Positions 3,765 to 55,313 are shown, numbered from the stretch's first letter. The stretch is 64,000 nucleotides of DNA from Octopus sinensis (GCF_006345805.1 NC_043006.1:68634001-68698000), one strand, 5' to 3'. Translations and numbers: made by a program. The notes: generated by a model from the sequence alone, not told the origin.

Positions 3765-3900
3765 TTTTTTCTTCTCATCCCTTTCTTTGAAGAGCATAAA
3801 CTCGAAACATCAAAGACTTCCATTTTTTCTGAGCATCAAACTAATACACCTACTTGTTCCCTCGTCTGTCTATGTCTTTTGTCTTCTGTACATTTGAACC
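3765..3900 (+). mobile_element. Short repeat relic with a decayed minimal hammerhead-like motif
   Basis: cttt-ctTTGAA-gag-cataaa-ctc-GAAA-ca-TC-aaag at 3781-3815. Its 3' part resembles 7680-7770. Confidence 0.4.
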
Positions 3901-3907
3901 ATATATA

Positions 3908-4225
3908 GAAGGGTAAAGACTCCTTTCAGTCATGAATGACCATGCGATTGCACCTAGAAAGTGACCCTCCAAGGCACAAATACTAGCAGAGTTGTTTATG
4001 GAAGACCAACAGTCACCCATGCATACCAGCCTTCCCTCTCCATGCCACCAATGTTATCCAAGGGAAAGGCCAGTACAGCTTGGCACCAGTAATGTCGCAA
4101 CTCATTTCTACAGCTGAGTGAACTGGAGCAACATGAAATAAAGTGTCTTGCTCAAGAACACAACACACAGCCTGGTCCAGGAATCAAACTCACAACCACA
4201 TGATTAATGCTGTAACCACTGAGAC
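3908..4225 (-). mobile_element. SINE family E (tRNA head, gtgttcttgagcaagacact core); second copy at 45235-45565
   Basis: Two alignable copies occur in the window, with a related plus-strand copy near 39558-39860. Confidence 0.7.
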
Positions 4226-4370
4226 ATATTTCATAGATATATTATGGTCAGCCCATACAGAAGTGTCAGTAGTTGATATATTTGTATTTCAATGTAAAAC
4301 CGGTGGGTGTTGCAGTTGATTTACAACCTCACTCAATATAATAGTACAAAGAAAAACGAAAGTGATTTAC

Positions 4371-4801
4371 CTTATTATCCATGGTTGGAAAGTTTACTCT
4401 CAGAACATTCTGGTTACAAAAATTGGGTAAAAATCCAAATTGAGTTCATTGAAGAGACTGGTAAGTCCAGGAAAGACAAGAAAGGGCTTTCATGAAGGCT
4501 TTGTGTCAGGAAGACATGGAATTAAATCGTTCCAGCATCGTACCACTATTGTAATCACAGGTGGTGGTACATTAGTAGCTCTTTGAGAGATGTGGTCATA
4601 AAGAAGCTAATAATAAAATATATTGTTATAAACCAGGGAGAAAGGTTAAAAAGACCAAACTCCCAACAAGTTCGCCGTAAACTTAAAATGATATTCTGGT
4701 AGGTCAGGAGTGGTAGATGTCCTGGTATATAATGTTGATGCTTAATAACATCTTGAAAACTTCCATAGATATTCCATATCTTTCTTAGAGAGGAACCAAA
4801 T
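4371..4801 (-). other. Candidate host exon (5' UTR plus start codon, MDNK)
   Basis: Acceptor ttttctttttttctactttcAG, Kozak-like ccaaccATGG at 4382-4380, and donor AAG|gtaaat. The sequence is non-repetitive. No transcript evidence is available. Confidence 0.35.
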
Positions 4802-4960
4802 CTGAAAGTAGAAAAAAAGAAAATTTATTAGACATGAGCAGAAATGTGCAGTCAGTTATACTGAAACCAATAAATTGCTAGTAAGGACACAGTATTTCAT
4901 TTTGCAACCATGATTTACTACCAAGTATATTAAAGTTTTACAAGTCAATATCTGACTTAC

Positions 4961-5029
4961 TTTTGTGTTAGCAGTGTGATGTTTCTATTTTCAAACTTGA
5001 TCAATTTTCTATAGAATTCAGAGCCGGCA
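4961..5029 (-). other. Candidate small upstream exon
   Basis: Branch-like ctaac plus tttcAG acceptor and an AA|gtaagt donor. It would define a 159-bp intron to the exon ending at 4801. Confidence 0.3.
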
Positions 5030-51169: not shown

Positions 51170-52095
51170 TTAACCCTAGATCATCCTTCATCCAGCAGAT
51201 TAACAATACAATACTTTATGACCTTTGTTTATCAATTTGTTTTGCAAGATCCCTGATGTGAAATCATGTGTTGAAACAGATATTGTTGTACTTTGAGATG
51301 GTCATTTGATTTATTATCATCATTTTTTTTCTTGCCAAATAAACACATGCACAATATATTATATATATCATCATCATCGTCTAATGTCCGCTTTCCATGC
51401 TAGCATAGGTTGGACGGTTCAACTGGGGTCTTGGAAGCCAGGAGGCTGCACCAGGCCCAGTCTGATCTGGCAATGTTTCTACAGCTGGATGCCCTTCCTA
51501 ACGCCAACCACTCCGTGAGTGTAGTGGGTGCTTTTTATGTGCCAAGCGAGGCTGGTAAATGGCCACGATCAGTTGGTGCCTTTTACGTGCCACCGTATAT
51601 ATATATATATCTATATATATATATATATATATATATATATCTATATATATATATATATATATATATATATATATATATATATATATATATATATAATATA
51701 TATATATAATAGTAGGGAATATAATTCCAAACTTACAGGGAAAATTCAATTTAGCAATTCTAAATCAAATTTCACAAAATATAATATATGTATATAATTT
51801 AGAGAAAAACCTCTATTAAGCAATTCAATAGTGAAAGACGTTATTCACACCATATAGAAAAAATTAAATATACTATAAAAAACATTATTCTAAAAATCGA
51901 TAAAGTACATAAACAATAAATAATAAAATTCTCAATCAGGGTCCAAAATGTTTCTTGAGGGTCCATATAAGATTTTGTTGTTAAAATTTATGTGCAATAA
52001 ATTGCTTATACTTCTAAAATACACAAAATATTTTATTTTTTTAGGCAATTTCTTATAATACTTATTCATATAAATACAGTAGATTTATATATATG

Positions 52096-52963
52096 TACAG
52101 GATGCAGCGAATAAACTGTCACCTAAATCACGCAAAAATGAAAATAACACTGATATCTCATTTTAACAGGTGTATTTACCAAAATTGCATAAAAATATTT
52201 TGAAATACTAAAGAGCAAATTCATTCAATAAAATCATAATTGGCTTCAACCATGGCCTCCAGATGACTTCAGAATCTCCTGCAACTCTTCTAGATAGTCT
52301 CCTTGTTTAAGTTGGTGAATGCTGCAATAATCATTGCCTTCAGTTCATCTTTTTACAAGGAGCTTTGTTGGTTTCTTGCTCAACTGAATCCCACACATAA
52401 TAATCAAGGGCGCTGCAGTCTGGGGAGTTAAGTGGCCAGATGTTAAGGGTGGTGTGGTCGCAGAAATTGTGTGACAGTCATGACTGGGTTCTCCTGCTTG
52501 TGTGGCATGGTGCAGAGTCCTGTTGCCAGATATAGGGTCTTCGAGTTGTCACTCTCATCACCCAAGGCAGCACTACCTCCTACAGGCATTTGATGTAGGC
52601 CCCTGCATTATGTCTGAGGCTGGGTAGGAAGATGAACGAAGGCATAATGTTGCCATCACTAATAATCACTCCAAACACCATGACGTTGACTGGATGTTTG
52701 ATTTTTATCACTCTTGGTATATGTCTTCAGATTGCACACCCAAACACTCTGACATGTTCATATTGGAGCTTCTGGCATGAATACCAAGCAATACAGCATG
52801 TAATCTCCAAATTTCTGGCAGAGTAAATTGCATCATAGTGCTGTTTTTCTCACAGACGGTGCCCAGCTGACCCTACTATACTGTGTAGTTAATAAAATCA
52901 AAAACAATGTGCCTACATGAAATTAAAAATATGAAATGGTGACAATTTACCCATCATAGCCTG
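52096..52963 (-). mobile_element. Internally deleted Tc1/mariner element of the DD37D/maT type, nested in a hAT-like MITE
   Basis: TIRs TAcaggatgcagcgaataaactgtcacc / ggtgacaatttacccatcatagcctg. Minus strand gives QQDSAPCH...WPLNSPDCSALDYYVW...MVEANYDFIE. Confidence 0.8.
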
Positions 52964-53441
52964 TGTGTACATATATATATATATTTACCCATCATAGCCT
53001 CTGTATATATATACACACACACATATCGAATGGCTATGAAGATCCAGTAGAGCAAAACAGGAATCAAATGGGTCTATAAGCAAAAAGTAGTTGAAAACCA
53101 CTGTTTTACATGGTCAAATGTAGTTTAAGGGAGATTTGGCTGTTATTTTTAGTGCATCTAGCTACCACATAGAGGCCAGTTCATTGTTTCATGTAGTTAG
53201 TTTTGAATACAGGTGCGGTTGATGTATAACAGACATTGTTTCACTTTCCAACATATACTGAAGGAATGGCTAAAGAAATAAAGTACCAGATGACTGTTGA
53301 TGAAGTAAACAGTTCAAATCTTACCACTGGCTGTCTTAAATTACTAACAAACCAATTCAACACACACTGGCTCAGTTTACTTACCTGTAAGAAGGTACCA
53401 CACTAAGTTGATGATAATAATAATAATAATAATAATCATGT

Positions 53442-54047
53442 ATGCCCTGATACAGTACCAGGCAATGCCTTGATGCAGTACCAGGCAATACCCTGATGCA
53501 GTACCAGGCAGTGGCTCTCGTGGCTTCTGATCTTAACTGATTGGAAGTGTTATCATGTACATTGTTTTGTCTTGGTATAAAAGATGGGCTACAGCAAATA
53601 TTCTGCTCAATACCACAGATTTGCTCGTCAGTTGTTTGACTTTAACCAGTTGAACATGTCCCTTAGTGACTGACGATATGTGCATCTCTGACCATGAGCA
53701 GAAGTAGTGGGGGAGCATCATAGCCGTGTGTTGAGAGGTATTCTTTGGTGTTTGAATAATTCACCTCTGGAAACATGGGTGTTTCGTTCAACATCCTTAA
53801 ACAACCCTTATTCAGGGACCTTTTGGGCAGGATGGGTTAATTGACCAGAAGAAAATTCTAACTGGGCCCTACTTGCAAGGCCATGTGCTATTTATCTTGA
53901 TATGAGATCACCATGTCAGGCACATATGGTTGTGATGTTAGCCTGGTGTATTCTTATCAGACGGGTAGTCATGATGGATATACTGAGCTTCGTATACTTT
54001 ACCCCAGTGTCATTTTGATGGCATGCACTGCTCTCTCACTCACTCAC
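53442..54047 (+). mobile_element. Family C (TAA)n-flanked element with a triplicated 5' 23-mer
   Basis: Matches the other family C copies. atgccctgatgcagtaccaggca occurs three times at 53442-53510. Confidence 0.85.
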
Positions 54048-54088
54048 TAATAATAATAATAATAATAATAATAATAATAATAATAATA

Positions 54089-55313
54089 ATCCTTTCTACT
54101 AAAGGCACAAGGCCTGAAATTTGGTTGAAGTGGTTAAGTTGATTACATTGACCTCCAGAGCTCCACTGGTACTTGTTTTATTGATCCCGAGAGGATGAAA
54201 AGCGAAGTCGATCTTGGCATAACTTGAACTCAGAACGTAGATGTGGATGAAATGCTGTTAAACATTTCAGCCAGCATGCTAACGATTCTGCCAGCTCACC
54301 ACCATTTTTTAATAATAATAATAATAATAATATATTATTTACATTTGACGGATATTTGTTCTCATCTTGTTTGTTGTTAACACAACGTTTTGGCTGATAT
54401 ACCCTCCAGCCTTCATCAAGTGTCTTGGGGAAATTTCGAACCTGGGTTCTCATTCCTAAGGTATTTTTCGATGTTATTATTATTATTATTATTTCGTTTT
54501 TGTATTTGATTTGCAAGATTCTTTATGTGAACTCATGTGAACCGTAACCCTAATGACTCTCCCCAAACACAATAATAATAATAATAATAATAATAATCCT
54601 TTCTACTATAGGCACCAAGGCCTGAAATTTTGGTGGGAGGCAATAAGTCAGTTATATCGACCCCAGTGTTTTGCTGGTTCTTAATTTATCGACCCTGAAA
54701 GGATGAAAGGCAAAGTCGACTTTGGCGGAATTTGAACTCAGAACGTGAAGACAGATGAAATGCCAGTAAGTATTTCACCCGGTGTACTAACGATTCTGCC
54801 AGCTCATCACCTTAATAACAATGATAATATTAATAATACTAATAATAATGACCAAGAAGGTGGCGAACTAAAAGAACTGTTAACACGCTGGGCAAAATGA
54901 TGAATTTTGTCCATCTTTATGTTCTGTGTTCAAATTCTGCCTTTGTTGACTTTGCTTTTCATCCTTTTGGGGTTGATAAAAGAAGTACCAGTTGAACTCT
55001 GGGGTAGAAGTAATCAACTTACCCCCTCCCCTGAAATTGCTGGTCTTGCACCAAAATTTTAAACCAATAATAATAATTTAGTTTTAAACAGAGCGTTATT
55101 ATTCTTTTCTACTCTAGGCACAAGGCCTGAAATTTTGGGGGAGGGTCCAGATGATTAGATCGACCCCAGTTCGCAACTGGTACTTAATTTAACCCTGTAA
55201 GGATGAAAAACAAAGTCGACCACGGCGGATTTTGAACTCAGAACGTAAAGACAGACGAAATACTGTGAAGCATTTTGCCCAGTGTGCTAACGTTTCTGCA
55301 AGCTCACTGCCTT
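54089..55313. mobile_element. Cluster of four SINE family B copies (-,-,+,-) in (TAA)n-rich sequence
   Basis: Copies at ~54089-54305, 54596-54814, 54857-55066 and 55100-55313. Confidence 0.8.
54331..54473 (-). mobile_element. ~140 bp (TAA)n-embedded element with a B-box-like motif and a decayed minimal hammerhead
   Basis: Minus strand shows ggttcgaa, then acac-TTGATGA-a-ggctg(gagggtatat)cagcc-AAAA-cg-TT-gtgt. Confidence 0.55.

Follow-up and report, generated by a model that had tools for sequence, protein, structure and literature searches.

Our analyses of a 64,000-nucleotide (nt) stretch of the Octopus sinensis genome (GCF_006345805.1, NC_043006.1:68634001-68698000; hereafter the window) have identified a set of short hammerhead ribozyme motifs, and the stubs that carry them are very probably 5'-truncated 3' ends (pseudo-long terminal repeat, pLTR, remnants) of several endonuclease-positive (EN+) families of Penelope-like elements (PLEs), mostly decayed and situated beside TA/TAA repeats. 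About five loci are supported and three to four are doubtful, and the motifs are a real but ordinary feature of this DNA. A first-pass annotation of the window had listed six hammerhead-shaped motifs, and hammerhead-like letters are present at all six positions; those beginning at 37972, 15593 and 54380 (viz. c1, c2, and c3) are top-ranked in the present work, while those at 3781, 39379 and 30119 are, taken alone, at background level. The coordinates of all loci are collected in Table 1.

Motifs were sought on both strands with a log-odds scanner for type I hammerheads, which scores the core and stems I-III and was fixed before the controls. Local dinucleotide shuffles served as the null (200 shuffles, and 150 for the expected counts per 64 kb), and the expected values given below are numbers of equal-or-better matches per shuffled 64-kb window. 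With the canonical core, four matches of at least 27 bits were found (c1, c2, c3, and a further motif at 30785-30818) versus a mean of 0.455 in the shuffles; four such matches occurred in 1 of 200 shuffles and three in 4 of 200, and none of 120 scrambled 5' cores gave four on the real window. The comparison with dinucleotide-shuffled controls that the first-pass annotation had proposed is thus favourable at top scores only, as 553 matches were observed versus 556 in the null at 13 bits. When a U3-A8 core was added post hoc, six matches of at least 27 bits were obtained (five independent loci) versus 0.7 expected, an outcome seen in none of 250 shuffles.

Other descriptors gave partly overlapping results. 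With a descriptor of the published consensus, c3 was the sole match with at most one violation (2 of 200 shuffles gave one), and at most two violations yielded three matches versus 0.42 expected, with c1 missed and the match at 20497 probably due to chance. A strict pair-count descriptor allowing at most one core mismatch retrieved only c1 and a motif at 63350, and minimum free energy folding was non-discriminating (z of +0.5 to -2.1 over eight motifs). Nothing reached the gathering score in Rfam and no hammerhead model was matched at E<=10 in three short regions, the coverage of minimal PLE variants by Rfam being unchecked; for the whole window at E<=10, only microsatellite and hairpin microRNA look-alikes were present among the 150 of 275 matches listed. 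The silence of Rfam, the background scores of 3781, 39379 and 30119, the lack of enrichment of the right half of the motif and the occurrence of a best score of at least 28.9 bits in about 10% of shuffled windows (the highest of 200 being 32) would all be expected if only 37972-38019 were a true hammerhead and the rest were chance look-alikes in AT-rich, repeat-rich DNA. We regard this explanation as quite improbable, as just 4 of 200 shuffles contain three or more matches at 27 bits, the four top matches all adjoin TA/TAA tracts (a trait unused in scoring), 30785 and the motif at 12157 lie within inverted structures of PLE type, and c3 is one violation away from the published consensus.

The strongest match, c1 (38012-37979), scores 39.6 bits (0.0 expected), above the best shuffle, and consists of a 7-bp stem I, a stem II of 3 bp plus one mismatch, and a stem III formed by an 11-nt palindrome around a 1-nt centre (self-duplex -10.1 kcal/mol). 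Stub c1 is likely a PLE 3' end, and its hammerhead is predicted to be the best candidate for residual activity among the loci. Beside it, a 54-bp single-copy island between TA/TAT tracts (38092-38145, minus strand) may be the 3' end of a further retroelement that lacks a hammerhead. The c2 hammerhead (15636-15597; 28.7 bits, 0.19 expected) has G8 read as A, one stem I mismatch, an irregular base of stem II and a perfect 8-nt palindromic stem III (self-duplex -11.1 kcal/mol). The c3 hammerhead (54419-54384; 27.1 bits, 0.57 expected; fold z -2.1) has a U at position 3 and, at a CpG, an A in place of G12, together with an extra nucleotide after A9, a G10.1-C11.1 pair, a 5-bp stem II and an ACGU palindrome. 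The common layout of GAAA, palindrome and UH that the first-pass annotation ascribed to its motifs does not hold for all of them: alone it is not enriched (33 occurrences versus 28.3 +/- 5.7 in 200 shuffles), c3 reads AAAA rather than GAAA at 54384, and 3781 and 39379 are without a palindromic stem III.

The motif at 30785-30818, missed by the first-pass annotation, is the third-ranked canonical match (28.6 bits, 0.19 expected) and belongs to arm 1 (B1) of an inverted pair that we call family B. In this hammerhead A9 is read as C, stem II has 5 bp closed by G-C, and the stem III palindrome is imperfect. Arm 2 (B2) is 5'-truncated inside loop II of the hammerhead, and its 3' end is about 60 bp longer than that of B1 and ends in (TA)n. 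The polyubiquitin fragment that separates the arms is identical at 27 of 28 amino acids (aa), crosses a junction between ubiquitin units, and matches ubiquitin in Pfam (E 3.5e-4) and polyubiquitin in PDB (43.8 bits per unit junction). Its fusion to B2 is likely a reverse transcriptase (RT) template switch onto mRNA, which, so read, marks family B as a retroelement and indicates an RNA intermediate. The small related piece at 54495-54572 may itself be a small inverted junction, and 6990-7020 has 3'-end motifs in common with family B.

Two spacer-less foldbacks, each single-copy in the window, present a related geometry. Each arm of the 11985-12314 foldback, which the first-pass annotation did not report, contains a U3-A8 variant core (12157 on the plus strand, 12144 on the minus strand) starting 6 nt from the centre, with a 4-bp stem II, GAAA, an AGCGCU palindrome and a weak stem I. 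The 12157 motif scores 29.7 bits under the U3-A8 core (0.1 expected) and 22.5 under the canonical core, and its stem III self-duplex is -8.3 kcal/mol. This foldback is very young and would yield long double-stranded RNA (dsRNA) if transcribed. The arms of the 30116-30311 foldback have no recognisable 5' core box and score at background (15.0 and 14.4 bits; about 474 and 577 expected). At a single CpG the two arms have changed in opposite directions, an indication of a once perfect 8-nt palindrome, and this foldback is possibly a dead hammerhead. The predicted hairpins (-259 and -144 kcal/mol) would bury the motif in both foldbacks. Whole-length inverted repeats bordered by TA, and a 30116 foldback devoid of a 5' core box, are also what miniature inverted-repeat transposable elements (MITEs) with TA target duplications would show, the hammerhead letters then being incidental. 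We consider such an origin improbable, given that in the 11985 arms a published variant core is complete and accompanied by stem II and a palindrome, that the neighbouring family B pair has the same head-to-head geometry plus an mRNA insert, and that MITEs occupy 0.19 Mb of the Octopus vulgaris genome versus 191 Mb for PLEs (PMC13282606).

Weaker evidence comes from family c4 and candidate E7. The named motif at 3781-3815 (14.8 bits, about 506 expected), in which the 5' core box is broken and stem III is not palindromic, gains only indirect support from its homologue at 63333-63422, which shares 69% identity with it over 91 nt (blastn E 2.8e-6) and has a near-complete core: 63350-63378 agrees with five of the six fixed 5' core box positions, A6 being the exception (23.3 bits, 7.9 expected). 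In this two-copy comparison both copies show CpG-type decay of the central palindrome and neither has A6; judged from the sequence, copy 2 supports a putative hammerhead ancestry for family c4, with the active core not restored. E7 has an extra G, four of five stem II pairs, an AAUU palindrome and two violations of the published consensus (25.7 bits, 1.6 expected), with no TA/TAA tract within 354 nt. The named motif c5 is unsupported as a hammerhead (12.6 bits, about 953 expected) and folds otherwise.

Table 1. Features of the window, with positions counted from its first letter.
Feature	Position	Strand	Description
Stub c1	37862-38064	-	About 200 bp, flanked by (TA)n on both sides; single copy in window
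c1 hammerhead	37972-38019	-	Minimal type I, intact core; C3 at 38012, predicted cut after A at 37979
Stub c2	15524-15760	-	(TA)n at its end; 5' limit uncertain; contains the 15593-15640 hammerhead
Stub c3	54333-54473	-	Flanked by TAA and TTA tracts; contains the 54380-54423 hammerhead
Family B arm 1 (B1)	30709-30941	+	Hammerhead at 30782-30821; 3' end enters (TA)n
Family B arm 2 (B2)	30421-30625	-	Inverted head-to-head copy of B1, 91% identical
Polyubiquitin coding fragment	30625-30708	-	84 nt; between B arms, fused directly to truncated B2
Family B-related 3'-end fragment	51222-51360	-	Without hammerhead
Family B 3'-end-related small fragment	54495-54572		Between TAA tracts; without hammerhead
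Spacer-less foldback	11985-12314		330 bp; arms 97.5% identical; both ends in TA tracts
Foldback	30116-30311		196 bp (93%); each arm with GAAA, CpG-decayed 8-nt palindrome, UA
Family c4 copy 1	3765-3915	+	Contains named motif 3781-3815
Family c4 copy 2	63330-63480	+	Homology 63333-63422; hammerhead-like at 63350-63378
Family c4 copy 3	7682-7776	+	Starts just downstream of hammerhead; ends in (TA)n
Candidate E7	6990-7110	-	U3-A8 core at 7090 (motif 7090-7060); weak
Named motif c5	39379-39427	-	Core with two mismatches; stems not in register; palindrome absent; single copy
Decayed, frameshifted AP-endonuclease/RT LINE	about 31630-36360	+	Apparently near full length

Taken across the loci, a complete core is found at 38012 (minus strand) and, with a weak stem I, at 12157 (plus) and 12144 (minus); one to two core changes are present at 15636, 30785, 54419 and 63350, and 3781, 39379 and 30119 fall short of a core. 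Stem III palindromes are perfect in c1, c2, 12157, c3 and E7 and imperfect in B. The extra nucleotide after A9 and the G10.1-C11.1 pair are combined in c3 and B and not in c1, c2, 12157 or E7. Truncation at the 5' end together with an inverted copy characterises the family B pair and both foldbacks. Among 55 pairs drawn from 11 segments, clear similarity was limited to the two B arms and to B2 with c3up, in agreement with the first-pass impression that the motifs are apparently unrelated. A 70% match linking the 3' end of c2 to that of the 11985 foldback was rejected as a relationship, as it vanished once the TA tails were excluded. No hammerhead locus in the window is arranged in tandem, and no direct partial-tandem pLTR copy is present. 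The candidate stubs total 2464 bp, or 3.85% of the window.

At all four top canonical matches the predicted cut is followed, 54-120 nt further downstream, by a TA/TAA tract, versus 18.7% of random positions and 11 of 57 matches at 19-27 bits, with a 130-nt cut-off that was chosen post hoc (the random background at 200 nt is 26.5%). The adjacency to microsatellites asserted by the first-pass annotation therefore stands for the top matches, and fails for 3781, where the 159 nt upstream and the 798 nt downstream are free of qualifying tracts and the 3' end has just a short stub of TA; 63350 likewise lacks such a tract under the same definition.

These properties correspond to those of known PLEs, whose insertion sites are AT-rich or (TA)n, whose copies show heavy 5' truncation, frequently beside an inverted truncated copy, and which have an optional tail (PMC8557442), and whose minimal hammerheads cleave weakly and as a dimer (PMC4209133, PMC6765202). 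The metazoan PLE hammerheads of Cervera and de la Pena (2014, PMC4209133) resemble those described here in the presence of solitary motifs in truncated copies, opposite-strand pairs (there 100-700 bp apart), a palindromic stem III, the extra nucleotide after A9 with G10.1-C11.1 (here in c3 and B), a genome populated by many families unrelated to one another, and variant cores (U3-A8, described as a covariation in Schistosoma, and U3-G8 in Saccoglossus). They differ in that the window holds no full pLTR-flanked PLE and most of its copies have core or stem changes, and c1 departs further by having neither the extra nucleotide nor the G-C pair, traits also absent from some published motifs of the Hydra clade (PMC8557442). 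PLEs of this clade (Craig et al. 2021, PMC8557442), among them Hydra-1_Obim of Octopus bimaculoides, have (TA)n targets and a 3' hammerhead with a long palindrome, and share with our loci the (TA)n preference, the hammerhead near the 3' end and the inverted 5'-truncated copies; c1 and c2 also resemble them in a 4-5-bp palindromic stem III, a short centre and a cut after A (by eye, File S2 of PMC8557442). By eye no stub is Hydra-1_Obim itself, and assignment to a clade would need RT sequence. Poseidon PAc of Anolis (PMC11167929) is similar in its AT-rich targets, optional 3' tail and hammerhead in the pLTR; for that element the mechanism has been shown in vitro and hammerhead cleavage is dispensable for insertion, whereas our stubs are known from sequence alone. 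Hence the first-pass suggestion of Penelope-like elements is supported by anatomy, (TA)n adjacency and the junction with mRNA; membership of the stubs in the PLEs is probable on these anatomical grounds, no PLE open reading frame (ORF) having been detected among the frames scanned in the window.

The structures could have arisen as follows. The GIY-YIG endonuclease of an autonomous PLE would nick AT-rich DNA, and the PLE RT would copy RNA from near its 3' end, usually stopping after 100-300 nt, so that a hammerhead near the 3' end would survive in the stub; each stub would then come from a separate PLE family and comprise its 3' 100-300 nt, and the inverted pairs would have originated, like the mRNA chimera, from fold-back or template switching. 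The precursor RNA of a parent element would be cleaved when the palindromic stem III of one pLTR copy pairs with that of a second copy in tandem. The copies in the window are solitary or on opposite strands, lack a same-strand partner and are mostly changed in the core, and the foldback hairpins would bury the motif, so they are predicted to be inactive.

Two further origins for the stubs have to be weighed. They may be dedicated non-autonomous short elements (SINE-like families mobilised by PLEs) rather than products of truncation; no coding sequence adjoins any stub, and non-autonomous PLE derivatives exist (PMC8557442). We hold this to be unlikely, although the least so of the alternatives, as the copies of families B and c4 begin at differing 5' points, which is what truncation predicts. 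The stubs may also be non-LTR retrozymes (retrozymes being named in the first-pass annotation), or their monomers, replicating through circular RNA; like the stubs, retrozymes are non-coding elements of a few hundred bp with type I hammerheads (PMC7229834; bioRxiv 10.64898/2026.07.22.740005), the stubs share the 150-330-bp size and low GC, solo monomers have been recognised as a category, and PLE pLTRs may be the origin of retrozymes (bioRxiv 10.64898/2026.07.22.740005). Retrozymes, however, comprise tandem 150-450-bp units with canonical hammerheads (PMC7229834; bioRxiv 10.64898/2026.07.22.740005), whereas none of the motifs here lies in a tandem repeat or has the canonical 6-bp/4-bp layout, the stubs being solitary or inverted with minimal or PLE-type stems; the hammerheads lie near a 3' end that abuts TA, and 5' truncation varies among copies. 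This suggestion is consequently abandoned as very improbable.

Several observations weigh against the derivation of the stubs from truncated PLEs. Singly, c2, B and c3 are just moderately unusual (0.19-0.57 expected), and the U3-A8 core entered the scanner after the 12157 motif had been inspected. TA adjacency is unspecific, as 8 of 15 and 15 of 22 copies of two SINE-like families also touch TA/TAA tracts, as does the LINE at 31.6-36.4 kb. No PLE RT or GIY-YIG remnant was detected in 300 of 305 filtered open frames of at least 48 aa, drawn from outside the LINE region, low-complexity frames and high-copy repeats; the missing ORF is expected because the copies are short and 5'-truncated. Six stub motifs of 11-12 nt and three earlier ones are absent from the available text of the PMC8557442 supplement, in which line wrapping can hide matches. 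Searches through spurious predicted proteins recovered no other copies of c3, c5 or c4 (c4 gave three unrelated repeat proteins), and an exact 27-nt c3 pattern had no match in GTDB genomes.

The remainder of the window (36% GC; 138 tandem-repeat rows) is crowded by the two dispersed short interspersed nuclear element (SINE)-like families, with 15 and 22 copies of at least 100 nt that are about 70-85% identical (e.g. 54064-54332 and 38922-39338), often adjoined by TAA or TA tracts; their consensuses are without a hammerhead (18.7 and 20.8 bits only). Unclassified low-copy dispersed repeats of 300-600 bp (8109-8674, 42298-42915, and 53487-54040; 3909-4205 and 45231-45526) contain no hammerhead exceeding 20 bits, and both SINE-like families and three low-copy repeats were rejected as hammerhead carriers (best scores 16-21 bits). 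A 19-bp minisatellite of about 11 copies occupies 482-702. On either side of the long interspersed nuclear element (LINE) lie degenerate (TA)n-type tracts of unusual length (30938-31612 and 36361-37861), and the best match of its RT, among the few with a species name, is a protein of the octopod Argonauta hians (58% over 73% of the query).

PLEs constitute 6.83% of the Octopus vulgaris genome in 190 families, with an expansion about 56 Mya (PMC13282606), which makes the hammerhead density of the window unsurprising, as it does the very high genomic density that the first-pass annotation drew from about six motifs in 64 kb. For comparison, strict counts of minimal motifs are about 4,000-9,000 in coelacanth and Xenopus (PMC4209133), one coral has more than 6,000 motifs and axolotl up to 120,000 retrozyme copies (PMC7229834), and the giant squid genome has 235 Rfam hammerheads (PMC6962438). 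Extrapolated to 2.8 Gb from this single flagged window (Poisson 95%), one canonical intact core per 64 kb would correspond to 1,100-244,000 and five loci to 71,000-510,000. No octopus-wide hammerhead survey turned up in the literature searched, in which some apparently off-topic listings were left unread.

The class of element, its targeting of TA and its abundance in octopus are already published, and the present analysis adds examples rather than a new concept. It indicates that relaxed, PLE-aware hammerhead scans recover retroelement stubs missed by Rfam, and that several such stubs can occur per 64 kb of a TA-rich invertebrate genome. The centre of the 11985 foldback and the switch in loop II onto polyubiquitin mRNA bear on the question of what PLE hammerheads do. 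A clustering of 5' truncation points at the hammerhead is only a lead: given without a statistic, the 11985 foldback, B2 and the copy at 7682 fit it, and c1, c3 and B1 read through 50-70 nt. A broader conjecture, which we think doubtful, is that octopods carry of the order of 10^5 hammerheads from dozens of PLE families, U3-A8 variants included, which would greatly exceed the published strict counts, and that the fold acts as an RT stall point for fold-back or jump. If this were true, RT stalling at the hammerhead would produce perfect dsRNA-forming foldbacks and mRNA chimeras like the polyubiquitin fusion, and the function of the PLE hammerhead would extend past cleavage to the structure of insertions.

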